Below, piece by piece: positions 9,983 through 40,011 of a stretch of 64,000 nt of DNA. The stretch is from an uncultured Bacilli bacterium. Its GTDB lineage: Bacteria > Bacillota_I > Bacilli_A > RF39 > UBA660. Location: contig CAKOYD010000001.1 in assembly GCA_934130545.1 (NCBI GenBank), positions 138,343 through 202,342 on the forward strand. Reading direction: 5' to 3'. The notes beneath the pieces are model-generated. The model had not been told where the DNA came from. It saw only the letters and a list, made by a program, of their open reading frames with translations, and did not search any database. Both the position numbers and the translations under genes were made by a program. Each line of letters starts with the position of its first letter. Positions within the stretch are counted from its first letter, which is position 1.

Positions 9983-10422
9983 GTGATGAAAAAAATAGTT
10001 ATAAGTTTACTTATTATTTTAATTATTGGTGTTTCTTTAATATTTACAGCATTTAATAAGAAGAACGAATCTAGTTCGTTCAAGAAAATTACGGTAGCAG
10101 AAGTTGCACATAGTGTCTTTTATGCTCCCCAATATTTAGCTTTATCTTTAGGATATTTTGAAGATGAAGGATTAGATATTGATTTAGTACTTGCTAGTGG
10201 TGCTGATGCGGTTATGGCAGCAGTGCTATCAGGAGATGCAGAGATAGGATTTTCTGGTACAGAAGCAACTATTTATGTATATAATGGTGGTGAGAAAGAT
10301 TATGTAATGACTTTTGCCGGTCTTACTCAGAAAGATGGTAGTTTCTTAGTATCTAGAGAAAAGATTGATAATTTTACTATTGATATGTTAAAAGATAAGT
10401 ATATTATCGGTGGACGTAAGGG
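9983..10422 (+). pseudogene. ABC transporter substrate-binding protein (NMT1/SsuA/TauA family), N-terminal fragment interrupted by element A
   Basis: Signal peptide/TM plus NMT1-like N-terminus ending ...IIGGRKG. The frame then runs into element-derived sequence. It continues in frame at 12921 after in-silico excision (GGRKGGMPEM). Confidence 0.75.
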
Positions 10423-10450
10423 GTTTCTTGTTAAATGTGATAGTATATAG
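10423..10450. repeat. element A left att arm (ttcttgttaaatgtgatagtatatag)
   Basis: Matches the reverse complement of 12892-12917 at 20 of 26 positions, immediately abutting the core. Confidence 0.65.
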
Positions 10451-11942
10451 TTATGTTTTTGTCTTTATCAATTGTTAGATAATTAATAATACTACTTAAC
10501 ATATTTTTATTTATATCTTTTAAGTTAATAAAATTATCGATAATAGTGTCATAGTCGTACTTTTGCTTGTTAATAATATTCATTTTCTTTAATAATTTAT
10601 TTTCTTTATCCACAAGTGTGTTGATATTATTAGTTATTTCTTTAGTGTATTCTATATATTCTTGAGTGGTTATTATATTATCTAGTTTATCATAATAGAG
10701 TTGTTTCTTTTTTGATAGTAAGTTGTTTTTATCTAGTTTTATAGAATTTAGACTAGTGGTTAGTGAAGTTTTTATTTTTTTGTTAGTGCTAGTTTGTAAG
10801 ATTTCTTTTAAGTAGACTTTATTTATGTTAGATTTTAAATATTTGCTTATTTCTTTTAGGATGACTTGTTCTAATAAATTATAATTAATAGTATGAGGAG
10901 TGCATAGTTTGTACTTACTGTATTTTCGGTAGTATGCGCAACTTGTATAACTATTATTACCTATTTTAGATATTGTTATTTGGTGCTGACATTCATAGCA
11001 CTTGATAAAACCTTTGAGTAAATAGTTAGATGATTTAGATTGGAGATTTTTATTTTTAGATAAGTTATTATTTACAATATTAAATATTTGCTTGTCAATG
11101 ATTGGTAAATGAGAGTTTTGGGTAATAATCCAATTTTCTTTGGGAGTTTTTATTTCTTTTTTTATTTTATAATTTATTTTCTTTCTTATTCCTTGATATA
11201 ATGATCCTGTATATGTGGGGTTAGTTAAAATATCTTTAATGGTCTTGCTACTCCATATGCCGGTAGAGTGTCTATGTAAATTAGCATATACACTAGGAGT
11301 TGGAATGTTTTTAGAGGTTAATATATTGGCAATTTGACTCAGACCATAACCAAGATAAGCTAAATTAAATATTTGTTTTACTATTTGTGATGAATTATCA
11401 TCAATTACTAGTTTATAACGATTATTAGGATCTAGTTTATAGCCGTATACGGCTTTCCAACCTAAAAATAAGCCTTGCTCTTTTTTTGCCCGAAGACTTC
11501 TTCTTACTTTTTTGGAAGTATCTTTAGCATATTGATCATTAAAAACGGCTTTAAATGGTGCAATGTCATTACTAGTGCTGTCATAGTAGGTGTCAATATC
11601 ATCTAATATAGCGATATATCTTATATTATGCATGGGAAAATATTTTTCAAGATACTCCCCTGTTTTAATATAGTCTCTTCCTAATCTAGAATAGTCTTTT
11701 GTTATAACACAGTTAACCTTGTTTTCTTCAATATCGTTAATTAATTTTTTAAAAGATGGTCTATCAAAGTTTGTACCAGAATAACCGTCATCAATATATT
11801 CTTGATATATTTGGTAATTGATATCTAACTTTTCAAGATAATTTAGAATAATACTTCTTTGGTTAGAGATGCTTTCACTTTCTTCTTTATCTTTATTATC
11901 GCTATGAGATAGTCTGATATAGATACCTATTTTATATATCAT
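10431..11942 (-). CDS. large serine recombinase (resolvase domain + recombinase domain + zinc ribbon + coiled coil)
   Basis: N-terminal IGIYIRLSHSD...SISNQR...DDGYSGTNFDRP...YSRLGRD resolvase catalytic motifs and a C-terminal Cys cluster. Stop is 10 bp from the left junction. Confidence 0.85.
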   Translation of the reverse strand: MIYKIGIYIRLSHSDNKDKEESESISNQRSIILNYLEKLDINYQIYQEYIDDGYSGTNFDRPSFKKLINDIEENKVNCVITKDYSRLGRDYIKTGEYLEKYFPMHNIRYIAILDDIDTYYDSTSNDIAPFKAVFNDQYAKDTSKKVRRSLRAKKEQGLFLGWKAVYGYKLDPNNRYKLVIDDNSSQIVKQIFNLAYLGYGLSQIANILTSKNIPTPSVYANLHRHSTGIWSSKTIKDILTNPTYTGSLYQGIRKKINYKIKKEIKTPKENWIITQNSHLPIIDKQIFNIVNNNLSKNKNLQSKSSNYLLKGFIKCYECQHQITISKIGNNSYTSCAYYRKYSKYKLCTPHTINYNLLEQVILKEISKYLKSNINKVYLKEILQTSTNKKIKTSLTTSLNSIKLDKNNLLSKKKQLYYDKLDNIITTQEYIEYTKEITNNINTLVDKENKLLKKMNIINKQKYDYDTIIDNFINLKDINKNMLSSIINYLTIDKDKNITIYYHI

Positions 11943-12077
11943 TATCTAGTCCATAATATTTATTAAAGTATTCTACTAAGTAATAAGATAATAGTTTGTT
12001 AATGTCAAAATTTATTTCAGGATGGATATTTATAATATTCATAGTATCACCTAGTTTAATATATGAGTAAAAAAATA

Positions 12078-12093
12078 GATTATCACGAGTGAT
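12078..12093. promoter_or_regulatory. perfect palindrome TTATCAC-GA-GTGATAA between the XRE gene and the LSR 1 start
   Basis: 7-bp inverted repeat with a 2-nt spacer. The spacer is too short for a hairpin loop, so this looks like an operator in the recombinase promoter region. Confidence 0.45.
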
Positions 12094-12096
12094 AAC

Positions 12097-12336
12097 CTAT
12101 TTATCTAAATCATTAAATAATTCTTTTATATCAATATCTAGAACTTCAGCAAACTTCCATACTGTCCCTAAACTAAATGTTTGATGATAATTGGGACTTT
12201 CAATATTCATAATAAATCCATCACTATATGAACACTTCTCAGCAAATTCTGATTGTGTTAACTTTTTAAGTTTTCTTTGTTTCTTTAAATTTTGTGATAC
12301 TAAATAGTATACATAGTTTTCATCTTTCTTATCCAT
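12097..12336 (-). CDS. XRE-family helix-turn-helix transcriptional regulator
   Basis: LTQSEFAEKCSYSDGFIMNIE HTH_3-like segment. Divergent from the plus-strand ORF 12458..12667. Confidence 0.65.
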   Translation of the reverse strand: MDKKDENYVYYLVSQNLKKQRKLKKLTQSEFAEKCSYSDGFIMNIESPNYHQTFSLGTVWKFAEVLDIDIKELFNDLDK

Positions 12337-12457
12337 ATATTAGTACACTTCCCTCTACTAATATTTTCTCACTAAAGTTGATTTTTATTCTTCACTTGTT
12401 CGTTGAGATTTGGTATAATATAGTTATAATTCTTAAATTGATTAGTGGTGAAAAGGC

Positions 12458-12667
12458 ATGATTAAAGAAAATAAAGTTAATGAAGGTGAATTGGTACTAT
12501 ATAGTACAGTATTAAGTATTTATAACTATTATAATAAAAGTTTTACTAAAGAAATTAATGATAATATTCTTTTACTTTTAGATAGCTTAGAGAAAAATAG
12601 ATGGGATAATAGTGAAGCTGATATTGATAAAATAGAATTAATTGAAAAAATTACTTATCAAGATTAA
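12458..12667 (+). CDS. hypothetical small protein (element A cargo)
   Basis: ORF only. Divergent from the XRE gene. No recognisable motif. Confidence 0.3.
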   Translation: MIKENKVNEGELVLYSTVLSIYNYYNKSFTKEINDNILLLLDSLEKNRWDNSEADIDKIELIEKITYQD

Positions 12668-12878
12668 TTATTTTTTTATATAATTCTATTTCTTTTTGGT
12701 TGTTATCTTTAAATAGTTTAATAAATTTAGTTTTTAGGGCTTGATAGTATTCGGTTAATAATAGTAAGTCTTTTTTATTTAATTGGTTTTCTTTGAGCAT
12801 TTGTCTTATTACTAGGAGTTCTAATAAAGTGTTAGATAATTCTTCATTAATATTAAATCTTATGTCTTCTATTTTCAT
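12651..12878 (-). CDS. hypothetical small protein (element A cargo)
   Basis: ORF only. Convergent with and overlapping 12458..12667, so one of the two may be spurious. Confidence 0.25.
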   Translation of the reverse strand: MKIEDIRFNINEELSNTLLELLVIRQMLKENQLNKKDLLLLTEYYQALKTKFIKLFKDNNQKEIELYKKIINLDK

Positions 12879-12891
12879 TATTTCCTTTCCT

Positions 12892-12919
12892 ATATATTAT
12901 CACTTTATACTAGAAGGGG
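12892..12919. repeat. element A right att arm
   Basis: Reverse complement (ttctagtataaagtgataatatatag) mirrors the left arm. Confidence 0.65.
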
Positions 12920-12920
12920 T

Positions 12921-13061
12921 GGTATGCCCGAGATGACATTAGAATGGGGTATTAAGCAAGCCGGGTTAGATCCTAAGACGGATATGACAGTTGATACTTC
13001 TATTGCTTTTGCTGCTATGCAGGGAGCTTTTGTTGGAGGAACAGGTGATTTTGTAACACTA
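12921..13061 (+). pseudogene. SBP gene middle fragment (NMT1/SsuA family) lying between elements A and B
   Basis: Plus-strand translation GMPEMTLEWGIKQAGLDPKTDMTVDTSIAFAAMQGAFVGGTGDFVTL is typical of NMT1-family SBPs. The listed minus-strand ORF 12905..13093 is antisense noise. Confidence 0.7.
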
Positions 13062-13163
13062 TTTGATGATAGTGATATAGTATGAAAGTGCAATATATAT
13101 AATTCTATCTTCTTATCTATTTAATTATATAATTAATGATTTCTAATAGTCAACATAATTAAT

Positions 13164-14579
13164 CTATAGATAACTAGTATAGTTTACTTGGTAAGTTATG
13201 CTATATCTTTTAGTGGATTTACTATCGTAGCCTCTTTTAAATATAAACTCTTTTTGATATGGTTTTGGTAAATTATTTATTTTAATATCTAAGATTATTT
13301 GGTTATTGTTAGAAGATACATTAATACTATCTATTACTTTTATTAGAGTGTTTATAATAGTGCTTTCTAAAACATCATTAATATTATTAGTTATTTTGAT
13401 AGTATCTATTTCTTCGTTAGTAGACTTATAGATAGTTAGTAATTCTTTAGTTATATCTTGAGTGTTAATATTTAAGATTTTAGTAATATAACTTATGATG
13501 GTATTTAATTCATTTTCTCTAATGTTTGGATTATTACATTTATTATGAATATGACTAGAACAAACCCACGATACTGTTTTATTTTTTAGATAGATTCGAC
13601 GATAGTACGTTTTGTGGCAAGAAGAACAATATATTTTTTGACTATAGGTATATTTTTGAGGAGTATTACTACTCTTTTTTCGTAATTTGAGACGTTTATT
13701 GGCTAGATTCCATGTTTCTTCACTTACTATGGGAGGAATTTTAGTATTATCTTTATATATGTACCAAGATGATGGATCAAGATATTTTATTTTTTTAGTC
13801 ATATAGTCTGCTACTTCTTTTTTATGACCACAGTAATAACCTTTATATTTTGGATTAGTAATAATTCTTGAGATTGTAGTGGTAGTCCACTTTTTGGGGG
13901 TATTATAATCATTATTTAATATTTGGCTTATTTTTGTTAGAGATAATTTATTTTTGGTATACATTTTGAAGATATTTTGAATAACTGCAGCTTCTTCAGA
14001 AATAATTTCTAAATTCTTAGTAGTCATATTTTTCTTATAGCCATATAAGTTGTTGGCTCCTAGAACCTCTCCCCTTTTTATGGCTCTACTCATACCAAAT
14101 TTTATTCTTTCGGATAATCTTCTTACTTCATCTTGGGCAAGACTAGCCATTATTGTTAGGCGTAATTCCGAGTCATTTAATATAGTATTGATGTTATCGT
14201 TTATAAATAATACTGCCACACCATAGTTTAATAATTCTCTTGAATACTTAATACTATCAAGGGTATTTCTAGAAAATCTTGATATTTCTTTGGTTATTAT
14301 TAAGTCAAACTTATTTTTTTTGGCATCATTAATCATTTGCATAAACATTTTTCTCTTTATATCACTGACACCACTGATACCTTCATCAATATAACCAGGG
14401 ACATAAGTCCAATTAGGGTTATTCATTATATATTCAGAAAAGTGTTCATTTTGATTTTGTAATGATTTAATTTGCTCTAGGTGTTCGGTGGATACTCTAG
14501 CATAATAAGTAGCTCTTAGAGGAATATTATTTAATAATTCACCACTTGCTAATTTTTTCTTTACTTCATAGATATTCAT
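13164..14579 (-). CDS. large serine recombinase
   Basis: YARVST...QNQ...DEGISGVSD...ISRFSRN resolvase motifs, a recombinase domain and a C-terminal Cys-rich zinc ribbon. Lies at the left end of element B. Confidence 0.85.
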   Translation of the reverse strand: MNIYEVKKKLASGELLNNIPLRATYYARVSTEHLEQIKSLQNQNEHFSEYIMNNPNWTYVPGYIDEGISGVSDIKRKMFMQMINDAKKNKFDLIITKEISRFSRNTLDSIKYSRELLNYGVAVLFINDNINTILNDSELRLTIMASLAQDEVRRLSERIKFGMSRAIKRGEVLGANNLYGYKKNMTTKNLEIISEEAAVIQNIFKMYTKNKLSLTKISQILNNDYNTPKKWTTTTISRIITNPKYKGYYCGHKKEVADYMTKKIKYLDPSSWYIYKDNTKIPPIVSEETWNLANKRLKLRKKSSNTPQKYTYSQKIYCSSCHKTYYRRIYLKNKTVSWVCSSHIHNKCNNPNIRENELNTIISYITKILNINTQDITKELLTIYKSTNEEIDTIKITNNINDVLESTIINTLIKVIDSINVSSNNNQIILDIKINNLPKPYQKEFIFKRGYDSKSTKRYSITYQVNYTSYL

Positions 14580-14710
14580 TCGTTATAGTACTCTTTCTTT
14601 GACAGTTTATCTTGGCAGAAGTTATATAAATATAGGGAGATAATATTTTCTTCATATAGTTTGCTATTTATTTCAAGGGCTAGATTATTAGTAATTATTT
14701 TCTTTAGCAT
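14576..14710 (-). CDS. 44-aa small ORF overlapping the LSR 2 start (ATGA overlap); single-Cys peptide with a charged tail
   Basis: MLKKIITNNLALEINSKLYEENIISLYLYNFCQDKLSKKEYYNE. Read from the sequence; below the ORF-track length cutoff. Function is speculative. Confidence 0.25.
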   Translation of the reverse strand: MLKKIITNNLALEINSKLYEENIISLYLYNFCQDKLSKKEYYNE

Positions 14711-14778
14711 GTTATCACCTATTTAATTTTATGTGATAAATATTAATTTATAATTTACTAGTGGTTTATTATGTGATA
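14711..14778. promoter_or_regulatory. GTGATA-containing repeats upstream of the LytTR regulator gene
   Basis: TTATGTGATA at 14729-38 and 14769-78 (direct, 40 bp apart) plus the inverted copy gTTATCACct at 14711-20. LytTR proteins bind imperfect direct repeats. Confidence 0.4.
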
Positions 14779-14813
14779 GAATTAAATAGTACGTTTACTC
14801 TCATTAGATAAGA

Positions 14814-15569
14814 ATGGGAGTTATTATGAACTTTATTGTATATGAAGATGATACAAGATTTTCTTACGAATATAAAAAAGTTATTCACAAAGTTATGGGG
14901 CTATCGAGTGATAATTATAAGATAACAGAATTTAATAGTTATAATAAAGAAGTATGGGAAAAAATTAAGACAATTGGTAGTCCTAAAATATTTATTGTTG
15001 ATGTTGAAGTTCCTAATAAAAATGGTATTGATTTAGCAAGAATGATTAGAAAAAGCGGTGATTGGACAAGTCCGATTATTGTTATTACTAATTATCAAGA
15101 ATTTAGAAATGTCGGCTATACTGCTAAAATACTAATGTTAGATTTTATAAATAAGAAAGATAATATAAAAGAAGAATTATATCGTGATTTACTTATTGCT
15201 TTAGAAATTAATTCAACGAAGAAAGCTTTACGTTTTACTATTAAAGGTGAAGTTTATCAAGTTCCTTACCAAGATATATTATATATTGAAAAGAATATTA
15301 ATGATAATTATGCTACTATTGTTTGTTCAGATAAAGAATATACCATTAGAAAAACTATTTGTGAATTAGAAGAAGAACTTAAAGATGAGAATATTTTTGT
15401 TAAGAGTCATCGTAGTTTTATTGTAAATATAAATAATATTAAATCTATTAAGTTTGATTATTCAGTTATTGAGTTTGGTAATGGAATAGAAGCATTAATA
15501 TCTAGAAATAACAAAAAGAAATTAAAAGAGATTATGAGTTATAAGAATGAACGGCACTATAATATATAA
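14814..15569 (+). CDS. LytTR-family response regulator (AgrA/ComE-like)
   Basis: N-terminal receiver domain (DD...K pattern) and a C-terminal LytTR DNA-binding domain (FVKSHRSFIVNINNIKSI). Confidence 0.8.
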   Translation: MGVIMNFIVYEDDTRFSYEYKKVIHKVMGLSSDNYKITEFNSYNKEVWEKIKTIGSPKIFIVDVEVPNKNGIDLARMIRKSGDWTSPIIVITNYQEFRNVGYTAKILMLDFINKKDNIKEELYRDLLIALEINSTKKALRFTIKGEVYQVPYQDILYIEKNINDNYATIVCSDKEYTIRKTICELEEELKDENIFVKSHRSFIVNINNIKSIKFDYSVIEFGNGIEALISRNNKKKLKEIMSYKNERHYNI

Positions 15570-16848
15570 TATTATTGATTTTTATTTAATTAGTTTTTAT
15601 TACTATTTTACTAATCGTATTGTTTTTAGAAAACGAGTATATATTAACTATTACACTTTATTAATTTTTGTTATTTGTGGAGTTATGTTTTGTCTTGGTA
15701 AGATAATGCTTTGTAGTTTATTAATTATTATACCTTCTTTTTTAGTGGGATTTATTTATAATAAATATATTTTTAAGATGAAGACTTGTACTTCGTATTT
15801 ATTATCACTTATTTCTTCTTTTGTACTAGCTTTTATTGTAGCACTTTTTTGTGTACTATTTAGATTCTTAGGAATTAGTTTTGGTGGTAATTATTTATTG
15901 TTTTTATTGGCTAAAATGTTTTATATTGGGATAACGATGCTTATTACTTATGTAATTACGTGGAAAGTCTTCGAAAAGATTACCTTTAGTTATCGTAATT
16001 TTTGTTATATCATTGTGATAGGTGTTGTTATTTGTTTAGCATTATTAGTTATGGTTATGATTATGGTACATGAAAATAAGATATGTTTAATGTTATATCT
16101 TGCTTTAATAGCCATGCTATTACTAGGCACTTTGGTTGTGGACTATCGAGAGAAAAAGAATGCTGCTTGTGGAAAAAGGCTTATTGAACTATATGAATAT
16201 GCTAAAGAAAGTGATGCTGTTATTACCGAGTATAGAATGGCTTTACATGAGAGTAATAATACTCTACTAGCTATTAAAGGGATGCTTGGTGGTAATGCTG
16301 ATGAAATTAGAGATTATGTTGATAATGCTATTAAGAAACGTAGAAATATTACTGTTCCTAAAGATAACTTTGGTGCTTTAAATTATATACCTGTTCCTTC
16401 GATTAGATACTTTCTTAGTGGGAAGATATGTGCCATTAAGGATATTGGTTCTAGTGTAGAATTATTTATTAGTCCTGAGGTAGTTAAGATTAAAGATTAT
16501 GTAGGAATGGTTGATTGCTGGAATGATCTTTATATAGTTTTGGGAGTTGTGTTAGATAATGTAATTAATTCTTTGAAAGAAGCTCCTGATAAACTTTGCA
16601 GTATACAAATATATTTAGAAAGTACTATTTTACATTTTGAGTTTGCTAATACTTTTAATGATACTGCGAATGTTAGAAAAATAGCAAAGACAGGATATAA
16701 AACTAAGAATGTTAATCATGGTGTTGGATTGTCTTTAGTTGATGAAGTTTTAAAAGAGAAAAAATATTATAGTTTAGAAACGGATATTGTTGATAATTTC
16801 TTTGTTCAAAAATTAAAAATTGATTTAAGTAAGATTAAGATTAAGTAA
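15547..16848 (+). CDS. membrane sensor histidine kinase, AgrC/ComD-like (HPK10), GHKL ATPase
   Basis: Six or seven N-terminal TM helices, an H-box region and a C-terminal HATPase_c (NHGVGLSLV). Overlaps the response-regulator gene end. Confidence 0.75.
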   Translation: MNGTIIYNIIDFYLISFYYYFTNRIVFRKRVYINYYTLLIFVICGVMFCLGKIMLCSLLIIIPSFLVGFIYNKYIFKMKTCTSYLLSLISSFVLAFIVALFCVLFRFLGISFGGNYLLFLLAKMFYIGITMLITYVITWKVFEKITFSYRNFCYIIVIGVVICLALLVMVMIMVHENKICLMLYLALIAMLLLGTLVVDYREKKNAACGKRLIELYEYAKESDAVITEYRMALHESNNTLLAIKGMLGGNADEIRDYVDNAIKKRRNITVPKDNFGALNYIPVPSIRYFLSGKICAIKDIGSSVELFISPEVVKIKDYVGMVDCWNDLYIVLGVVLDNVINSLKEAPDKLCSIQIYLESTILHFEFANTFNDTANVRKIAKTGYKTKNVNHGVGLSLVDEVLKEKKYYSLETDIVDNFFVQKLKIDLSKIKIK

Positions 16849-16973
16849 ATTAATTCCCAAAAATCATTAAATATTTACTATTTATCATTTATTATAATTT
16901 TCTTATTTGTATGTGTTATGATGGTGTCATGCGAATAACCAATTCGTAAGATTGAAAGCGAGGTAAATTTGTA

Positions 16974-17183
16974 ATGAATGGTAAAGTAAAATGGTTTAAT
17001 AATGAGAAAGGATATGGCTTTATTGAATATAAAGACAATGAGGATATTTTTGTTCACTACTCTGCAATTAAGTGTAATGGATTTAAAACCTTAAAAGAGG
17101 GTGAACTTGTTCAGTTTAAACTTATTGATACTGATAAAGGTCTACAAGCTAGAGAAGTACTTTCATTATCTAGTATTTGTTAA
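16974..17183 (+). CDS. cspA: cold-shock protein (CspA family)
   Basis: MNGKVKWFNNEKGYGFI RNP1 and VHYSAI RNP2 motifs. Long 5' UTR. Confidence 0.9.
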   Translation: MNGKVKWFNNEKGYGFIEYKDNEDIFVHYSAIKCNGFKTLKEGELVQFKLIDTDKGLQAREVLSLSSIC

Positions 17184-17204
17184 AATATAAGTCATTAATT
17201 AATA

Positions 17205-17239
17205 CTCAATTACATATAATTTGTAGTTGAGTTTTTTAC
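17205..17239 (+). terminator. rho-independent terminator after cspA
   Basis: Stem ctcaattac/gtagttgag (8/9 pairs), loop atataattt, then TTTTTT. Confidence 0.55.
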
Positions 17240-17254
17240 TGCTTTCCTACCCTT

Positions 17255-17683
17255 ACACTAACAGAACCTAATGCAACAGCTGTAGAAAAAGCTGGGCTTG
17301 GTCATATTGTATGTTATGTTGGGGATTTAGGTGGTTTAGTGCCTTATACTGCTTATAATGCTAAGAAAAGTTTTATAGATAATAATAAAGATGTTATTAA
17401 GGGATTTAGTAAGGCTATTGATAAAGCACTTAAGTATGTTGATAGTCATGATAGTAAAGATATAGCACCTCTTATATTAGATTATTTTCCTGATACTAAG
17501 TTAGAGGACATGATTACAATAATTGATCGATATAAAACTGGTCAAGCATGGAAGAAAAATATTACTATTAATGAAGATGAATGGAATCATATTCAAGAAA
17601 TAATAATGGAAGCTGGCGAGTTAAATAATACTGTTAGTTATGATAAATTAGTATATTCTAAGCATTTTAAAGATTATGAATAA
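17255..17683 (+). pseudogene. SBP gene C-terminal fragment (NMT1/SsuA family)
   Basis: In-frame TLTEPNATAVEKAGLGHIVCYVGDLGG... continues to the stop at 17683. The listed ORF start at 17339 is an internal GTG. Confidence 0.7.
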
Positions 17684-18095
17684 TATAGTTCAAATAAAAA
17701 ATATTAGTAAAGACTTTTATAGTAAGAATAAGATAACTACTGCGATTAAGGATATATCACTTGATGTTAAAGATGGGGAGTTTGTGGCTATTGTTGGACC
17801 TTCAGGGTGTGGTAAATCGACACTACTTAATATACTATGTAATTTAGATAAGCCAACTAGTGGGCAAATAATATTGAAGAATAATGCAAAAATTGGTTAT
17901 ATGCTCCAACAAGATTGTTTATTTCCATGGTTAACTATTTTCGATAATTGTTGTATAGGGTTAAAGATTGAAAATAAGTTAACTAAAGAGAATAAAGAAT
18001 ATGTTAAGAATTTATTATATACCTATGGGCTTAAAGATTTTATGAATAGTTATCCTAATAGTTTATCTGGTGGTATGCGTCAAAGAGTTGTTTGA
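17676..18095 (+). pseudogene. ABC transporter ATP-binding protein (SsuB/TauB/NrtD-like), N-terminal fragment interrupted by element C
   Basis: Walker A GPSGCGKST, Q-loop and signature LSGGMRQRV, then an element-derived stop. Walker B and the H-loop are found at 24348+. Confidence 0.8.
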
Positions 18096-18105
18096 ATATA
18101 ATAAA

Positions 18106-18134
18106 GACACAAGAAAATACACCCTAAGGTGTAC
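18106..18134 (-). terminator. terminator of the MMPL gene
   Basis: Stem tacacc/ggtgta with loop ctaa, then a T-rich run on the minus strand. Confidence 0.4.
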
Positions 18135-18136
18135 TT

Positions 18137-21100
18137 CTATTTAAATAAATTAACTATTCTATCCCAAAGCGTTGTTGTTTTAGCTTCTTTTACACTTTGA
18201 GATGCTGTAGATGTTTTTAAGGCATCAGTAGTTAAGATAAATCTTGTTGTAGACTTTTCTGAAGATCCGGCAAATGTTTGATAGTTATCGGCTAAGTTAG
18301 ATAATTCTTTTGCACGATATGACATTGATTTTAAATTACCATTAACAAGAGCAGATATTTGTTTGATACCTTCAGTGTTATATTTAGATATACCTTTCGA
18401 TAATTCTTGAATACCATTATTTAATTCATCTACTCCATTATATAGTGTACCTAATGATGTTTTAGTAGCTTCGATTGAAGCTTGTTTTACTTGGTTAGCA
18501 ACAGATGTTGAAGTATTTTCAGCAACAATGGAAGCGGTTTGAATTGCTGACTCATATGCACTATTAATAGCGGTCATTCTTGTTGTTTCTTCCATTAATG
18601 TTTTCATTTCTTGTAATGTAGTATATTTGGTAATATAGTCTTTATTGTTAGTACATGCTTCAACATATGGTGCGGAAATAGTAGTGCTTTGACAAACACT
18701 TACTAGACTTGAAGTAATACCGTTTGCTTCTAACATATTAATACTATTTACTATATTTTGATATGTAGAGTTTTCTTTTAATTTATTAACAGCATTATTA
18801 CCTATTTGTTCCTTATATTCATTAGTAAATGTTTTGTTGACAGTGGCTACAGCTTGAGATTTGATGTATGCTACTTGTTCAGAAGTTAAGGCATCTGATT
18901 CATCATCTATTTTACTAATAGCTTGTTCTAGTCTTTCTTTTAATTCGTTAGAACCATTAGCAATTTTAGTAGCTCCTTCTTCGATAGTATTCATATTATT
19001 TTGTAAATTATTTACTTTGCTATATACTTCATCTAATTTATTAAAGATATTTAAATCATTTGTTTCAATTAACTTTGGTGTAATTATTGAATACATAGAA
19101 GATAATTCAAATTTTGTTGTATCATAACTAATGGTAATAGTATCCATATTCTTTAATTCATATAGTCCTAGACTTTCATATAAACCTGGTGTTGCTAAAC
19201 CAACAATAACATAATTATTACCATTATTAATTACTTTACCATTATCAATAGTTAAGTTTTGGTTATTTGTAGTGCTTATTACACTTCCTAAAGTAGCTAC
19301 AAATGGTGTATATAAACTGCCATGTTTATCATGATTAATATATTGGATTTTTATTGTTACTTTACCACTTTTACCTATGATATCACTTGCTTTGTATTCA
19401 GTACCATCTAATAGATATGTAATTTTTAGACTTACTGGTAATTCTTTATCAGTAGTACCTTTATATAAGATATCTCTTCCTTTAGCATCCCATGTTAATT
19501 GATTATTATTTTGAGTAAATGTTCGATCATCATTAATATTTAAGATATTTTTTAATTCTGAATAGTCTTCGATAGAATCTAGTTTATCAGAATTAATTAA
19601 TTGTTCATTAACAGTGGTACTTTTAATAGTGCCATCATAATTTAATTTACTATAAACAGATTCCTTTTTCTCTAATGCAAAGATGTTTGTTGGAAATACT
19701 GTTGTTAATATGCCACCTAATAATAACCAAGTGGCTATTTTCTTAGATTTTATTTTATTCATTATTTTTTCCTCCTTATTTTTAATTATTACTTTATCAA
19801 ATAGTAATAATATTGCTGGTAAGATAGTTATTACTACCAAGACGCTTATTAGAGCTCCTCTTGATATTAGTGTACATATTGAACCAATCATTTCGATATC
19901 AGAATATAATCCGACACCAAAGGTTGCTGCAAAGAAACACATGCCACTAATTAATATTGATGGTACAGCATAGTTCATTACTTCTAACATAGCTTGTTCT
20001 TTACTTAAACCTTCTTTTCTTTTATTTATATAACTTGTTGTTACTAAGATAGCATAATCAATAGTAGCTCCTAATTGAATTGTTCCTAAAGTAATAGGTG
20101 CTATAAATGGTAATACTGTTCCACCAAAGTATGAGAAACTCATATTCGTGAATATAGCAAATTCAATAGCAATAATTAATAATATTGGTAAGATAAATGA
20201 TTTTAGTACAAATAGTAAGACAATAAATATACATACTATTGAGAATATATTAACGTTATTATAGTCAGTATCATAAGTTTCTACTAAGTCTTTCATTAAT
20301 GGTCCTTCACCTGCTACAATAGCTTTTTTATCATATGATTTAACAATATTATTTAATTTATCAGTTTGATTATTTAACTCATTAGTGGCTATATCATATG
20401 TTGAGTTAACAATCATCATTTCATAGTTTTCACTTTCAAAGATGCTTGATAAATTACTTGGAATGATATCTTCTGTTACTCCTATACTACTTAGTTCTCT
20501 AAATGATAAAACAAAATCAATTCCGTCTAGTTCTTTTATTTGTGATATCATATTGTTTATATCTTCATTTTTTAAGTCTTTACTTATTAGTATTATTTCT
20601 GGACTAACAATATTATATTTTTCTTTTAATAATTTATTTGTTTTAACACTTTCTAATGTTTCTGGTAATGATGAATCTAGTTTGTAGTATACATCAACTT
20701 TTTTATTTGCAAGATATGCTGGTACTAATAGAATTAAGAAGATGGCAAATACTACTTTATAGTGTTTAATTATAAAACTATTAAATTTAGCAAAGCTTGG
20801 TATTAAATTACCATGTCTTGTTTTCTCTATTAATTTATCAGAGATTAGTAACAAACTTGGGAATAAGGTTAAGACTGTTAAGACTCCTAGTAAAACACCT
20901 TTGGCCATAACTATTCCTAAATCACGGCCTAATGTTAATCGCATAGCACATAGTGCTAAGAAACCAACGATTGTTGTTAAGCTACTACCGGTAACAGATA
21001 CAAAGGTATCTTGGATAGCTTCAGACATAGCTTCTTCTTTTGTTTTATATTTGTTTTTCTTATCTTCATATGAATGATATAAGAAGATTGAGAAGTCAGT

Positions 21101-21817
21101 AGTAACTCCTAATTGTAAGACTGCTACTAAGGCTTTAGTAATATATGATATTTGTCCTAAAAAGATGTTTGTTCCTAGATTTAAGAGAATTGCACATCCT
21201 ATATTACCTAATAGAACAAATGGTACAAAGTATGAGTCTAAGGATAGTTCTAGTACAATGGTACATAGTAGAACAGCAATAATAATATAGATAGCTATTT
21301 CACGTTCAGATAATTCCATAGTATCAAGGACCATAGAACTCATACCACCTTGAGATATTTTTCCTTCGGTTATTTTTCTTATTTCTTTTACGGCTGATAT
21401 TGTTTTTTCATTAGATGTTGATTCGTTGAAGGTAATAAACATAATATCAGTATTTTCTTTATGTAATTTGTCTTTTACTTCACTAGGAAGCATATCGATA
21501 GGAATTGATACACCAATAGCATCGTAAATACTTACGACATTGGCAACTCCATCAATACCTTTTATTTTTTCTTCTAGGGATAATACATCTTTAGCAGGCA
21601 TATTTTCGATAGTTGCTATTGAGTATCCACCCATGTTGAAGTCATTTGTTAATACATTTTGGCCTTTTATTGTTTCTATATCATCTGGTAAATAAACTAA
21701 AATATTATAATTTATTTTGGTTAATTTCATCCCAATAAATGATAGAACTAATAAAATACTAAATGTAATTATAATTAATGTTTTATGTTTGCATATATAA
21801 TCAGCAATTTTCTTCAT
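18137..21817 (-). CDS. MMPL/RND-superfamily membrane transporter fused to a C-terminal YhgE/Pip-like extracytoplasmic domain (~1226 aa)
   Basis: Two 6-TM bundles separated by a soluble loop (MMPL architecture), then a further TM and a ~500-aa Ser/Thr/Asn-rich coiled-coil region like the YhgE/Pip N-domain. Probable start at ATG 21817 (RBS GGAGGGAG). The track's 18137..21850 ORF uses an upstream Met. Confidence 0.7.
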   Translation of the reverse strand: MKKIADYICKHKTLIIITFSILLVLSFIGMKLTKINYNILVYLPDDIETIKGQNVLTNDFNMGGYSIATIENMPAKDVLSLEEKIKGIDGVANVVSIYDAIGVSIPIDMLPSEVKDKLHKENTDIMFITFNESTSNEKTISAVKEIRKITEGKISQGGMSSMVLDTMELSEREIAIYIIIAVLLCTIVLELSLDSYFVPFVLLGNIGCAILLNLGTNIFLGQISYITKALVAVLQLGVTTDFSIFLYHSYEDKKNKYKTKEEAMSEAIQDTFVSVTGSSLTTIVGFLALCAMRLTLGRDLGIVMAKGVLLGVLTVLTLFPSLLLISDKLIEKTRHGNLIPSFAKFNSFIIKHYKVVFAIFLILLVPAYLANKKVDVYYKLDSSLPETLESVKTNKLLKEKYNIVSPEIILISKDLKNEDINNMISQIKELDGIDFVLSFRELSSIGVTEDIIPSNLSSIFESENYEMMIVNSTYDIATNELNNQTDKLNNIVKSYDKKAIVAGEGPLMKDLVETYDTDYNNVNIFSIVCIFIVLLFVLKSFILPILLIIAIEFAIFTNMSFSYFGGTVLPFIAPITLGTIQLGATIDYAILVTTSYINKRKEGLSKEQAMLEVMNYAVPSILISGMCFFAATFGVGLYSDIEMIGSICTLISRGALISVLVVITILPAILLLFDKVIIKNKEEKIMNKIKSKKIATWLLLGGILTTVFPTNIFALEKKESVYSKLNYDGTIKSTTVNEQLINSDKLDSIEDYSELKNILNINDDRTFTQNNNQLTWDAKGRDILYKGTTDKELPVSLKITYLLDGTEYKASDIIGKSGKVTIKIQYINHDKHGSLYTPFVATLGSVISTTNNQNLTIDNGKVINNGNNYVIVGLATPGLYESLGLYELKNMDTITISYDTTKFELSSMYSIITPKLIETNDLNIFNKLDEVYSKVNNLQNNMNTIEEGATKIANGSNELKERLEQAISKIDDESDALTSEQVAYIKSQAVATVNKTFTNEYKEQIGNNAVNKLKENSTYQNIVNSINMLEANGITSSLVSVCQSTTISAPYVEACTNNKDYITKYTTLQEMKTLMEETTRMTAINSAYESAIQTASIVAENTSTSVANQVKQASIEATKTSLGTLYNGVDELNNGIQELSKGISKYNTEGIKQISALVNGNLKSMSYRAKELSNLADNYQTFAGSSEKSTTRFILTTDALKTSTASQSVKEAKTTTLWDRIVNLFK

Positions 21818-21993
21818 TTTTCTCCCTCCGATAATATAGTTTATTATCATTTGTTGTTTTGGTACACACTAATAAAATATATTATGTTTGTTATCCAACA
21901 TTTTGATTAATATGTATATATATTTAAGCAACATTTTGTATGTTAATTGCTTTTTTGTTATTTTTGCAATATAATTATGTCGAGGCGGTAAAA

Positions 21994-22560
21994 ATGAAGG
22001 ATAAAACTGATTTAAGAGTTATAAAAACGAATAAGATACTATTTGAGGCTCTAACTACTTTGATGAAAGAGAAAACTTTTGAAAAGATTAAGATATCAGA
22101 TATATGTGAAGTGGCTCTGATAAATCGTTCAACTTTTTATGCACATTATGAAGATAAATATGAATTGTTATTAGCACTTATTGAAGATTTAAAAGATAAT
22201 TTGTTAGTAGAGCTAAATAAGAATGAAGCTGAATCTTTGTCCAAAGAATATTTTATGGAACTTTTAGAGATTTTAATTGACCATATTGATAGTAAGAGAG
22301 AGATTTATAGTGCAATACTTTCTCATAATAAGAATGGAATATTTGTGGACTTTTTAATTGATGTGGCTAATCGAGACTTGGCAAAAAGATTAAAGGATAA
22401 TCAGGAAATAATTAAATCAAATATTCCAGCGGATATTATTTCTAAATTTTATCTTGGTGGGATAATAAATATTGGTGTTGATTGGATTATTAATAAAGAT
22501 AAATATAATAAGGAACAAATACTTTTATATCTAGATAAGCTTATTCCAGATAAGTTATAG
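21994..22560 (+). CDS. TetR/AcrR-family transcriptional regulator
   Basis: N-terminal TetR_N HTH (FEKIKISDICEVALINRSTFYAHYEDK). Divergent from the MMPL gene. Likely start at ATG 21994 with a GAGG RBS. Confidence 0.8.
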   Translation: MKDKTDLRVIKTNKILFEALTTLMKEKTFEKIKISDICEVALINRSTFYAHYEDKYELLLALIEDLKDNLLVELNKNEAESLSKEYFMELLEILIDHIDSKREIYSAILSHNKNGIFVDFLIDVANRDLAKRLKDNQEIIKSNIPADIISKFYLGGIINIGVDWIINKDKYNKEQILLYLDKLIPDKL

Positions 22561-22768
22561 TAAAGTCATGACTACGGTTGTGGCTTTTTTTATTTATTCT
22601 ATTTCTAATTTAAATGAATAAAATATAAGTGAAATTTGGTGATTTATGAAATATGAAATTATTAAAGTATTTGATGATGATATTAGTGAATTAGAAATAA
22701 AAGATATTGTTAATAAGAAGTTAAGCATCATTATGAATATTATAGAGTTTAATTAGAGGTGATTAGAT

Positions 22769-24319
22769 ATTATTAATAAGTTAAAAGTAGGAATTTATTT
22801 AAGATTATCGAGTGAAGATAAAGATAAAATTAATAAAGATGACTATAGTGAATCTATTAAGAATCAAAGAAATATGCTAGTGGATTATATAAGTAAACAT
22901 GATGATTTTTATTTGGTAGATGAATATTGTGACGAAGATTTATCGGGTGCTGGAACATATAGACCAGAGTTTGAAAGATTAATTAATGATTGTGAAGGGC
23001 ATAGACTCGATATCGTTTTATGTAAAAGCCAGTCAAGATTTTCTAGAGATATGGAAATTGTTGAAAAATATATAAATAATAAATTTATCGAATGGAATAT
23101 TAGATTTATTGGCCTTGCAGATAATGCTGATACTGATAATTTTGGTAATAAGAAAGCTAGGCAAATTAATGGATTAGTTAATGAATGGTATTTAGAAGAT
23201 ATATCAAATAATATTAGAAGTGCATTTAATTCTAAAATGAAACAAGGTGAGTTTATCTCCCCTTTTGCACCTTTCGGATATGAGATTTCTTCTAATGATA
23301 ATAATAAGATTGTTATTGATAAAATTGGCTCGGAAATAGTTAAAAATATTTATAATTTGTATTTAAAGGGGTTAGGATTTACAAAAATTGCAGAGTATTT
23401 AAATAATAATAATGTCCCCTCACCTTCTTTATATAAGTATCAAAAAGGATGTAAGTTAAATATAATTAGTAATAAGAGGCGTGATGAAATCAAATGGAAT
23501 GGCAGTGCTGTTAAAAAGATATTAACTAATGAAATATATATTGGAAATTTAATACAAGGCAAAAGAACAACAGTTAGTTATAAGAATCATAGAATTATAA
23601 ATAAAAGAAAAAGTGAGTGGATAAGAAAAGAAAATACTCATGAAGGTATTATAGATAAAGATACTTTTTATAAGGTACAGTCGATTATTAATAGTCGTAG
23701 AAGGCCCTCTAAAAAATTAGGCACGATGCATATATTTTCGGGAAAAGTTTTTTGTATGGAATGTAATAGTATGATGAAAAAAAAGAATTCACAAAGACAT
23801 GAATACTTGGTATGCTCTAATAGTAATTGTCTTAATAAGTCTATACGCTATGATATGTTAGAGGGTATTATACTTAAAGAAGTTAATGGATTAGTTAGTA
23901 AATATTATGATAGTGAATTATTAAAAAAATATAGTTTAGAAGAAAGAAATATTATAGATAAAGTAAATACTTTAAATATGCAACATAATGATTTAAGAAA
24001 TAGAATTTCTAGATTAGATAATTACTTAAAGTCTCTTTATGAAGATAAGGTTAATGGTGTTATTACGGAAGAATATTTTATAAAACTTACTAATAGTTAT
24101 AATAATGATAAAAAAATTATTGAAGATAACATTAAATCTGTAGAGAGTAAGATAAGTTATTATAGAAATTATTTTAATGATAATATTATAGATAGATATA
24201 AAAGTTTTGATAATTTAAATAAGGTAATTGTTGATGAATTTGTTAATAAGATATGTGTTGGGAAGATAGCTAATAATAAAAGAAAAATTGAAGTTAGATG
24301 GCGTTTTTTATTTAATTAG
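22769..24319 (+). CDS. large serine recombinase (no canonical in-frame start upstream of the catalytic Ser; possible ATT start)
   Basis: VGIYLRLSSEDKD...IKNQR...SQSRFSRD resolvase motifs, a recombinase domain and a Cys cluster. The frame opens at 22763 after TGA. The first in-frame ATG is 22874, which lies downstream of the catalytic Ser. RBS AGAGGTGA sits 6 nt before ATT at 22769. Confidence 0.7.
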   Translation: MINKLKVGIYLRLSSEDKDKINKDDYSESIKNQRNMLVDYISKHDDFYLVDEYCDEDLSGAGTYRPEFERLINDCEGHRLDIVLCKSQSRFSRDMEIVEKYINNKFIEWNIRFIGLADNADTDNFGNKKARQINGLVNEWYLEDISNNIRSAFNSKMKQGEFISPFAPFGYEISSNDNNKIVIDKIGSEIVKNIYNLYLKGLGFTKIAEYLNNNNVPSPSLYKYQKGCKLNIISNKRRDEIKWNGSAVKKILTNEIYIGNLIQGKRTTVSYKNHRIINKRKSEWIRKENTHEGIIDKDTFYKVQSIINSRRRPSKKLGTMHIFSGKVFCMECNSMMKKKNSQRHEYLVCSNSNCLNKSIRYDMLEGIILKEVNGLVSKYYDSELLKKYSLEERNIIDKVNTLNMQHNDLRNRISRLDNYLKSLYEDKVNGVITEEYFIKLTNSYNNDKKIIEDNIKSVESKISYYRNYFNDNIIDRYKSFDNLNKVIVDEFVNKICVGKIANNKRKIEVRWRFLFN

Positions 24320-24347
24320 GGATGTGTTTATGATATTCAAGGAGTTG

Positions 24348-38346: not shown

Positions 38347-40011
38347 CTATTTAAATTTCATTTTCCCATTTCTCCCATAAGGATTTCTAACTAAATGCCT
38401 ATTTTCATACATAAAATTAATTTCTGGTATTACATCATATTTAAATATAATATTTATGTTTCTATTTTCATCAATTACTATCTTATCTATTAAAGTATTT
38501 ATTAGCTCTTTTTTAGGTTTTTTTAAATCTAATAGTTCTTTTATTTTCTTGGTATAATCTGGCAGTATATTTGCTTTATTCTTTATGTTTTTCTTTTTTA
38601 TTTTTTCTTCTTCAATTATATTATTAATCTTTTTTAATTTAGTTTCTGATTCAACAGATAATTCTTTATATAATTCAGTAGAAATTATATTATTACATCT
38701 ATCACTATATAAAGTAGATAATTTATTCATAATTTGTTCTTTTTCTTTTGTTAAATCTTTTATCTTTTTATCTATATCTTCTGTTTCTTTATGAACGTTT
38801 TTTTGTACTTCTTTATTTAATTCTCCTATATCTAGTTCTTTTATAAATTTTGATACTGAATTATTAAATTGCTCTAATATTTGTTCTTCTAAATAATCAT
38901 AAGGATAAAAGTGTGAACTACATCTTCCTCTTTTTGGATCTCTAGAATATCTATTACAATTAATAGACCAATAATCAAGTTTCTTTCTATAATAAACAGA
39001 TAGTCTATTGCCACACTCTTTACAAAATATTTTTCCTTCTAAAATTTTTTTGGGTCTTTCTGTTTTTAAACTATAATTTCTAGTTTTTCTTTTTCCTAAA
39101 GAATTAACATATTTAAAAGTTTCTTTATCTACTAATGGTTCATGAGTATCTTCAACTATTACCCATAAACTTTCATCTAAAGTTATTTTCTTCTTTGATT
39201 TATAATTTACTTTTGTTTGAGTATGTTGAACCATATCTCCAGTATAAATTCTATTACTTAAAATTTTCTTTACTGTTGATATATTCCAACTATCTCTATC
39301 AATCAATCTAGAAGAATAATTAGTTTTCTTATATCCTGCTGGTGTGGGTACATTCATATTATTTAATCTTGTTGCTATTTCTGTTGGTCCTATTCCTTCT
39401 GCTCTCCACTTAAATATATTTTTTACAATTGGTGCAGTTTCTGGATTAGGTATTAAATGTCCTTTATCCAAAGGATCTCTCATATAACCATAACAAGGTT
39501 GACTACCTATAAATTTACCATTCTTTCTTTTATCGTTTAATACATTTCTTATTTTTATAGAATTTTGTTTACTATAATAATCATTACAAGCAATTATAAA
39601 TGTTGAAGAATCATTACTAGCTTGATTTTTAAAACTATCATATGATTCAAGTATAGATATAAATCTTATATTATTTTCAGGAAAAAAAGTTTCAATATAA
39701 TATCCCGTCATAACATGATCTCTACCAAATCTAGATAAATCTTTAACTACTACACAATTTATCTTTTTTTGTTTTATATCCTCTAACATTTTTTGAAATC
39801 CTGGTCTATCAAAATTAGTACCAGAATATCCATCGTCTACATATTCTCCACATAGATTAAAATTATTATTTTTAACATAACTTCTTAGTAATTCTTTTTG
39901 ATTAATAACACTTTCACTATCAGATTCATATTTTTTATCTTTATCTTCTTGAGATAATCTTATATAGATTCCAACATTGAAATCTATTTCAGTTAAGTAA
40001 GTATTATACAT
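38347..40011 (-). CDS. large serine recombinase (paralog of LSR 1)
   Basis: VGIYIRLSQEDKD...VINQK...DDGYSGTNFDRPGF...LSRFGRD. Closest in motif string to LSR 1. Confidence 0.85.
   Translation of the reverse strand: MYNTYLTEIDFNVGIYIRLSQEDKDKKYESDSESVINQKELLRSYVKNNNFNLCGEYVDDGYSGTNFDRPGFQKMLEDIKQKKINCVVVKDLSRFGRDHVMTGYYIETFFPENNIRFISILESYDSFKNQASNDSSTFIIACNDYYSKQNSIKIRNVLNDKRKNGKFIGSQPCYGYMRDPLDKGHLIPNPETAPIVKNIFKWRAEGIGPTEIATRLNNMNVPTPAGYKKTNYSSRLIDRDSWNISTVKKILSNRIYTGDMVQHTQTKVNYKSKKKITLDESLWVIVEDTHEPLVDKETFKYVNSLGKRKTRNYSLKTERPKKILEGKIFCKECGNRLSVYYRKKLDYWSINCNRYSRDPKRGRCSSHFYPYDYLEEQILEQFNNSVSKFIKELDIGELNKEVQKNVHKETEDIDKKIKDLTKEKEQIMNKLSTLYSDRCNNIISTELYKELSVESETKLKKINNIIEEEKIKKKNIKNKANILPDYTKKIKELLDLKKPKKELINTLIDKIVIDENRNINIIFKYDVIPEINFMYENRHLVRNPYGRNGKMKFK

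Follow-up and report, generated by a model that had tools for sequence, protein, structure and literature searches.

A gene-intervening recombinase element in an uncultured Bacilli bacterium carries a conserved sensor kinase, regulator and cold-shock protein

Organization of the locus

We analyzed a window of 64,000 nucleotides (nt) from an uncultured Bacilli bacterium of the gut (lineage RF39, UBA660; GenBank assembly GCA_934130545.1, contig CAKOYD010000001.1, positions 138,343 to 202,342 of the forward strand), in which a transporter operon is interrupted by three elements, A, B and C, each with its own large serine recombinase (LSR). Element B, the focus of this report, spans 13067..17265 (4199 bp). 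Beside its recombinase (LSR B) and a small open reading frame (ORF) of 44 amino acids (aa), it carries a LytTR response regulator, a polytopic HPK10-type histidine kinase and a cold-shock protein (Csp). The initial annotation of this DNA had proposed an LSR element at 13056-17260 with the same regulator and kinase and cspA, and without AgrB- or AgrD-type genes on the same strand. All of these genes are present close to where it placed them, and neither AgrB nor AgrD was found in the element or among the ~38 window ORFs scanned. The element itself stands as described, while its exact ends were refined by alignment to intact homologues of the interrupted gene and by a natural contig, L027, that lacks the element. 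Its features, in order along the window, are as follows.

13065..13066, attL crossover dinucleotide GA; joined to 17264-65 it gives the native TLFEPNAT, and the same junction occurs in contig L027
13067..13163, non-coding left end, near-invariant between species
13164..14579, minus strand, LSR B, a 471-aa large serine recombinase (Pfam Resolvase, Recombinase and Zn_ribbon; PHROG 95; PDB)
14576..14710, minus strand, candidate recombination directionality factor (RDF), a 44-aa ORF; its stop codon and the LSR B start codon overlap (ATGA)
14754..14782, plus strand, promoter-like site TTTACT-17-TG-n-TAGAAT upstream of the regulator-kinase operon, kept in a second species (L008)
14826..15569, plus strand, LytTR response regulator of 247 aa (Pfam), with Asp59 in the motif IFIVDVEVP
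15547..16848, plus strand, AgrC-like (HPK10-type) histidine kinase of 433 aa, with a transmembrane sensor (aa 1-200), the H-box EYRMALHESNNTL (His234) and a GHKL domain
16861..16893, plus strand, direct repeat AAATCATTAAAT-N9-TTATCATTTATT, candidate LytTR binding site, 21 bp from start to start and abutting the csp -35 region
16914..16922, plus strand, extended -10-like element TGTTATGAT for csp, read from the sequence
16974..17183, plus strand, Csp, a cold-shock-domain (CSD) protein of 69 aa (CSD 92 bits)
17204..17232, plus strand, intrinsic-terminator-like hairpin 3' of csp, kept in L008 and in lineage L009
17264..17265, attR crossover dinucleotide GA, from homologue alignment and L027

The regulator start with ribosome-binding-site support is 14826, not 14814, and the kinase gene overlaps the regulator gene by 23 nt. 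The operon of the 44-aa ORF and LSR B is divergent from the regulator operon, with ~115 bp between the small ORF and the regulator start.

The interrupted gene encodes an ABC substrate-binding protein and is cut in three by elements A and B, with element B lying between a Phe and a Glu codon (TLF|EPNAT).

9983..10421, plus strand, piece 1 of the NMT1/NitT-TauT-type ABC substrate-binding gene (NMT1 Pfam match), ending ...GGRKG inside a GGGG run
12921..13066, plus strand, piece 2 (GGMPEM...FVTLF), between elements A and B
17264..17683, plus strand, piece 3 (EPNATAVEK...DYE), from alignment to intact homologues

Intact homologues are 332-334 aa long and at most 75% identical, and they read GGRxGGMPEM and GDFVTLFEPNAT across the two junctions. 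Joining pieces 2 and 3 at GA yields exactly TLFEPNAT, which sets element B at 13067-17265. The non-coding ends on either side of piece 2 are strongly conserved: between species separated by a synonymous divergence (dS) of ~0.5, the 13065-13163 stretch is 99% identical and 12879-12920 is 100% identical. A near-consensus minus-strand promoter (TTGACT-18-TATAAT, 13153->13124) is directed outward from element B; it runs antisense over piece 2, toward the minus-strand genes of element A.

A natural empty site

The protein expected from removal of element B alone (MPEM…FVTLFEPNAT…DYE, 186 aa) is present in a public collection, where exact lookup identified it as P0391. Its contig, L027, is 808 bp long and matches the window at 12741-13066 (99.1%) and then at 17255-17747 (97.2%), covering the right end of element A, piece 2, the predicted junction, piece 3 and the start of the ATPase gene. 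The attB junction of element B is GGTGATTTTGTAACACTATTTGAACCTAATGCAACAGC, and the predicted attP junction is …CTTACACTAACAGATGATAGTGATATAG…. Assembly at k=141 is unable to make the L027 join over an 11-nt similarity, and precise empty-site molecules therefore exist in nature. Element B either still excises precisely or is polymorphic.

The integrated form dominates among long contigs; the protein database is clustered at 90%, and excised forms are not countable from it. Neither viral contigs nor the loci that we fetched contained the attP junction of an excised circle. Kinase contigs of ~4.1-4.4 kb were considered as excised circles, and this was rejected: the two that we fetched (L025 and L026) are fragments of the integrated form. 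Metagenome contigs also break at element edges, with L025 ending at the left junction of element C and L004 beginning a few bases before piece 2, near the right junction of element A. Such breaks would be as expected from mixed integrated and excised populations in an assembly graph.

Age and selection

A scan of genome collections placed the element in an 'uncultured Bacilli' metagenome-assembled genome (L007, kinase 97%) and in a second species (L008, kinase 75%), in which all three elements occupy the same sites and which is collinear with the window over 21 kb at 88.6% nt identity. L009 (kinase 55%) reads through kinase and Csp into piece 3 at the same GA junction, and L019 (kinase 91%) keeps the same arrangement across the stretch covered by its contig. 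Element B occupies one and the same site in four lineages, and element and flanks have diverged in step; since L008, L009 and L019 share the site, the element predates the split of these lineages. The initial annotation had called the TCS on this element mobile, a term that calls for qualification given this shared site and common divergence, although the element does still excise or is polymorphic. Kinase relatives are absent from IMG/VR, and those on plasmids reach at most 28% identity, over the kinase domain only; a metagenome scan with the kinase alignment found only three near-identical loci.

Nei-Gojobori comparison of the window with L008 gave dS of 0.3-0.75, alike for host and element genes, and the following ratios of nonsynonymous to synonymous divergence (omega).

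PcrA (host), 0.03
Binding-protein piece 1, 0.10
Binding-protein piece 2, 0.00 (100% aa identity to L008 at dS 0.34)
Binding-protein piece 3, 0.09
LSR B, 0.11
Response regulator, 0.12
Kinase, 0.24
Csp, 0.012

The binding-protein pieces have dS of 0.3-0.5, and no stops or indels were found in binding-protein or ATPase pieces in any sampled locus (8 loci for piece 1 and 13 for piece 3). The genes of element B and the three host-gene pieces are under purifying selection, and the interrupted host gene is still selected as coding sequence. These values bear on the possibility of a dead insertion, in which a fixed remnant would lie in a binding-protein pseudogene and the two-component system (TCS, regulator and kinase) and Csp would have been co-opted as host genes. 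Such a remnant would agree with the integrated form of all long contigs and with the lack of an intact gene above 75% identity in the protein database. It is largely refuted by the precise empty-site contig, by the omega of the three pieces at their dS with reading frames intact in the sampled loci, and by the omega of LSR B, and we regard it as very improbable.

The recombinase and its small upstream ORF

By domain content LSR B is a large serine recombinase (Pfam Resolvase 104 bits, Recombinase 74 bits, Zn_ribbon_recom 30 bits), and the N-terminal catalytic Ser motif YYARVST can be read from its sequence. It matches the PHROG 95 integrase (3.5e-95), PDB 3g13 at 1.6e-35 and SprA/YokA (9dxh) at 7e-10; XisF is the best NCBIfam match of both LSR A and LSR B, far below cut-off. 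Identity to the other three recombinases of the window (LSR A, C and D) is 25-27%, and no close annotated relative of LSR B was found, with matches on plasmids at 35% identity or less.

The exact sequence of the 44-aa ORF is called on 121 contigs, and domain, PHROG and PADLOC scans returned no family match. A comparable tiny ORF also lies upstream of each of LSR A, C and D, none of which is accompanied by a TCS. By position the 44-aa ORF is closer to GirX, the 42-aa RDF of the non-phage intervening element gin (PMC5595907), than to AgrD, and its position makes it a candidate RDF. The initial annotation had suggested that this ORF might encode a peptide sensed by the kinase. It does contain a single Cys (…LYNFCQDKL…), followed by residues that vary between species (QDK vs KNN), but its overlap with the LSR B start and the comparable ORFs beside the other three recombinases make it a poor AgrD candidate.

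An AgrC-like kinase and a LytTR regulator

The regulator has LytTR (74 bits) and Response_reg (34.5 bits) domains in Pfam, and its nearest PDB entry is ComE (4cbv, 4e-15). In the kinase, hydropathy indicates ~6-7 transmembrane segments in residues 1-200, and Pfam finds HATPase_c_5 (47 bits). Its sole solved-structure relative is S. aureus AgrC (6e52, 1.4e-11), whose phospho-acceptor His aligns with His234 in EYRMALHESNNTL, in agreement with the AgrC-like kinase of the initial annotation. The pair does not, however, reach equivalog status: the NCBIfam AgrC match spans the full length of the kinase at 50.2 bits against a cut-off of 500, and the regulator scores 42.2 bits against AgrA, for which the cut-off is 400.

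These likenesses could be read as a mobile Agr-type quorum-sensing TCS that responds to a thiolactone or linear peptide, supplied from elsewhere or by the Cys-containing 44-aa ORF, with Csp as a passenger. Consistent with such a role are AgrC as the only solved-structure relative and the full-length AgrC profile match, the resemblance of the regulator to ComE and AgrA, the variable residues after the Cys of the small ORF, and a sensor domain that evolves faster than the kinase module (52-68% vs 85-90% identity between species). Yet the omega of the sensor, at 0.375 against 0.134 for the kinase module, does not indicate diversifying selection, and among 114 near-identical variants from the same species the sensor substitutions are few, conservative and without a specificity-group pattern. 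Pherotype-like hypervariability of the sensor was rejected on these grounds. Further, AgrB was not found in the element or the scanned window ORFs, and the 44-aa ORF lies on the strand opposite the TCS, overlapping the LSR B start, with equivalents at LSR A, C and D that have no TCS.

A conserved regulator-kinase-Csp unit

The gene neighborhoods of related kinases bear most directly on this reading. A profile-free search of 1.8 billion cluster representatives returned 1294 kinase relatives, one of them above 50% identity, and neighborhoods were inspected for the best full-length kinase matches only.

P0121, 55% identity, L009, Csp follows
P0124, 31% identity, L015, Csp follows
P0130, 33% identity, L016, Csp follows
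P0125, 30% identity, L020/L021, Csp follows
P0129, 31% identity, L022, Csp follows (contig ends 20 codons into csp)
P0133, 29% identity, L023/L024, Csp does not follow

The order regulator, kinase, Csp holds in six of the seven kinase lineages examined, down to 30% identity. Wherever Csp follows, the three genes are consecutive on one strand and 90-145 nt apart. In L016 and L020/L021 the triads stand amid housekeeping genes (SAM synthetase, glyoxalase, cation efflux, Ham1), and their neighborhoods contain no recombinase, AgrB, AgrD, small peptide gene or exporter. Because the triad is kept there without a recombinase, the linkage of kinase and csp is conserved independently of the recombinase element. 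The initial annotation had considered a TCS with a Csp on a site-specific element an uncommon combination; the recurrence of this order, twice in plain chromosomal surroundings of housekeeping genes, speaks against an accidental pairing of cargo genes. We found no description in the full-text literature of a module that pairs a LytTR system with a cold-shock protein.

The triad is an evolutionarily conserved three-gene unit and probably not an Agr quorum-sensing locus, and its gene order suggests that Csp is likely the output of the TCS rather than a passenger. Since the sensor pair is conserved next to a cold-shock gene, a classic quorum-sensing role for it is unlikely. Triads of other lineages have no nearby peptide ORF, AgrB or exporter, and a linkage retained in six of seven lineages is not that of a passenger; taking both sides together, we give the Agr-type quorum-sensing reading little credence. 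A peptide signal encoded elsewhere in the genome is possible.

Csp matches PF00313 at 91.8 bits against a cut-off of 27, the RNP motifs KGYGFI and IFVHY can be read from its sequence, and the exact protein occurs on 505 contigs. Upstream of csp, the repeat pair at 16861-16893 ends 23 nt before the extended -10, and a TGnTAnnAT-type element occupies a similar csp-upstream position in other lineages. A perfect 11-nt repeat, TTAATCACAAA, occurs in L016 with 21-bp spacing and equally far from csp; the repeat pairs upstream of csp in L022 and L015 are weaker. In a pair scan whose matrix included the window's own boxes, the window pair reaches 21.6 bits, and no other pair in the 64 kb exceeds 14.1. 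When the matrix is made from the window and L009 sequences, the pair upstream of csp comes first of ~11,000 in L016 and second in L015. The pattern is suggestive of an operator for the regulator. Rfam at the gathering threshold found no known RNA or riboswitch upstream of the transporter or csp, and the fold of the csp leader is not significant (z = -0.9). A defense-system reading was rejected, as PADLOC gave only generic CSD and helix-turn-helix matches.

A model for element B

The divergent arrangement of the two operons raises the question of whether the TCS is a rearrangement switch. The phosphorylated regulator would then drive the operon of the 44-aa ORF and LSR B, such that a signal leads to excision and the transporter gene is rebuilt. 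The closeness of the two divergent operons would suit such control, as would the presence of the TCS beside LSR B in every lineage carrying the element, and purifying selection on the split host gene implies that excision matters. However, the region 14580-14825 contains no csp-type repeat pair on either strand, a TTATGTGATA repeat within it is not kept in L008, and the same kind of triad occurs without a recombinase in other lineages. Given that no csp-type pair lies between LSR B and the regulator and that TTATGTGATA is unconserved, we find no sequence evidence for control of excision by the TCS, and we consider the switch unlikely. The TTATGTGATA repeat together with a TTATCAC/GTGATAA palindrome had been a candidate operator in this intergenic region; one arm is unconserved in L008 and the other overlaps the -10.

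In our assessment element B is instead probably a non-phage gene-intervening element, old, inherited vertically and still excisable, whose cargo is a self-contained module running from sensor to Csp. In our model LSR B would recombine at GA, drop 4199 bp and restore the Phe-Glu junction (TLF|EPNAT), with the 44-aa ORF acting as candidate directionality factor. The kinase would autophosphorylate on His234 and pass the phosphate to Asp59 of the regulator, which would then bind the 21-bp-spaced direct repeats beside the csp -35 and switch on Csp synthesis. The signal would be sensed inside the membrane domain and would not be a peptide from a gene next to the module; our best guess is cold or membrane stress, given that Csp is the conserved output. 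It is also conceivable, though we hold it to be doubtful, that the whole transporter operon is under programmed rearrangement: all three elements would have to leave, and the sensor of element B would tie Csp induction, and possibly excision too, to a cold, membrane or host-exit signal.

Several observations weigh against the model that we favor. The 44-aa ORF is without detectable homology, and its dS is saturated, such that selection on it as coding sequence is not demonstrated. As for the operator, the matrix from the window and L009 ranks the L020 pair only 52nd and no clear pair is seen in L020, while a matrix from L016 and L022 ranks the window site 46th of 128,000 for a motif that is AT-rich. 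A single natural empty-site contig was found, with clustering at 90% hiding how common such contigs are, and L027 could derive from a strain without the element rather than from ongoing excision. Lastly, the split transporter is under selection though the integrated form dominates assemblies, and the protein database yielded no intact binding-protein gene above 75% identity.

Relation to known systems

Element B resembles gin, which lies in gerE of Bacillus cereus ATCC10987 with the GirC recombinase and GirX, and its skin/SPbeta-type kin, in that an element within a coding gene carries a large serine recombinase, excision restores the frame and the host gene is kept (PMC5595907, PMC5025042, PMC5499854). 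Like gin it is small and non-phage, with a tiny unannotated ORF that may be an RDF (PMC5595907). It differs from gin, skin and SPbeta in its host gene, which encodes an ABC binding protein and is not a known sporulation gene, in the presence of three independent elements in one operon, in a cargo of sensor, regulator and Csp, and in its persistence at one site across lineages down to 55% kinase identity.

The TCS shares with AgrCA, ComDE, FsrCA, PlnBCD and VirSR a polytopic sensor of 6-7 transmembrane segments, an HPK10-type H-box with a GHKL domain and a LytTR regulator with Asp59, and its candidate direct-repeat operator has the 21-bp spacing of such HPK10-LytTR systems. Unlike AgrCA, it comes without an AgrB, AgrD or exporter that we could find in the element or scanned ORFs, has no repeat pair at its own operon, scores below the equivalog cut-offs, and has csp as its conserved neighbor and likely target. 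Bacillus subtilis DesK/DesR is a thermosensing TCS whose sensing segments are only membrane-embedded and whose output is cold adaptation. The likeness is by analogy only, as DesK/DesR belong to the unrelated HisKA_3/NarL families and their output is a desaturase rather than a Csp. In Anabaena heterocysts, the fdxN, nifD and hupL elements use XisF, XisA and XisC, and the window likewise has several independent elements in one functional unit, each with its own recombinase; the phylum and the process are different, and a terminally differentiating cell type is not evidenced here.

To our knowledge, nearly all gene-intervening serine-recombinase elements described so far lie in sporulation or heterocyst genes. 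An operon split three times, pieces under purifying selection and a natural excision product together suggest a wider use of reversible or programmed gene reconstitution among uncultured gut Firmicutes. A signal-gated switch, if true, would be programmed rearrangement outside the classical sporulation and heterocyst genes. The locus also supplies three natural sets of recombinase and att sites, each with a candidate mini-RDF. Judging from the triad, some AgrC-like kinases may sense stress or the membrane and control a Csp instead of serving as quorum-sensing receptors, which cautions against annotating AgrC-like kinases as quorum sensors from homology alone.

Neighboring elements

Elements A and C flank element B in the same operon.

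10422-12918, element A, splitting the same binding-protein gene
10431-11942, minus strand, LSR A
11932-12042, minus strand, 36-aa ORF of element A
12097-12336, minus strand, Xre-type helix-turn-helix protein of element A
18091-24347, element C, with an MMPL protein, TetR, a 36-aa ORF and LSR C with DUF4368; it cuts the ABC ATPase gene after GGMRQRV

Element A also holds ORFs of 69 and 75 aa. In-frame repair after its loss (GGRKGGMPEM) requires a GG crossover with a one-base offset within the GGGG runs; simple joining at the shared AAGGGGT core was rejected, as it yields a frameshift. In another species (L028-L030) the site of element A is occupied by a different recombinase element, at least 8.6 kb long, whose genes include one for a Macro-domain protein and one for a small resolvase.

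Element C is polymorphic within the species, since two loci of that species, L007 and L018, lack it and carry an uninterrupted ATPase gene. Its recombinase differs at the start codon: the GTG that begins LSR C in L001 is GTA in the window (22787-22789). The next in-frame ATG is at 22874, and a start there would lose the first 29 residues, including the catalytic-serine motif GIYLRLSSED. Because this motif would be dropped, element C may be locked in place in the window strain. In lineage L009 the site of element C holds a different element, which carries a peptidase M50 gene.

In a related species, the surroundings of the homologous transporter operon include a CotZ spore-coat gene (L028/L029, 17612-18022), and for this reason the wider clade probably includes spore formers, which bears on whether excision, whose physiological timing we infer rather than observe, is tied to sporulation. 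Farther along the window, a fourth large serine recombinase (38347-40011, 554 aa, 34% identical to LSR A and C) again has a tiny ORF upstream. It stands at the edge of a very low-GC stretch (21-25%, 38-48 kb) with a C-5 cytosine DNA methylase and a DEAD/ResIII helicase, and is probably part of another island.

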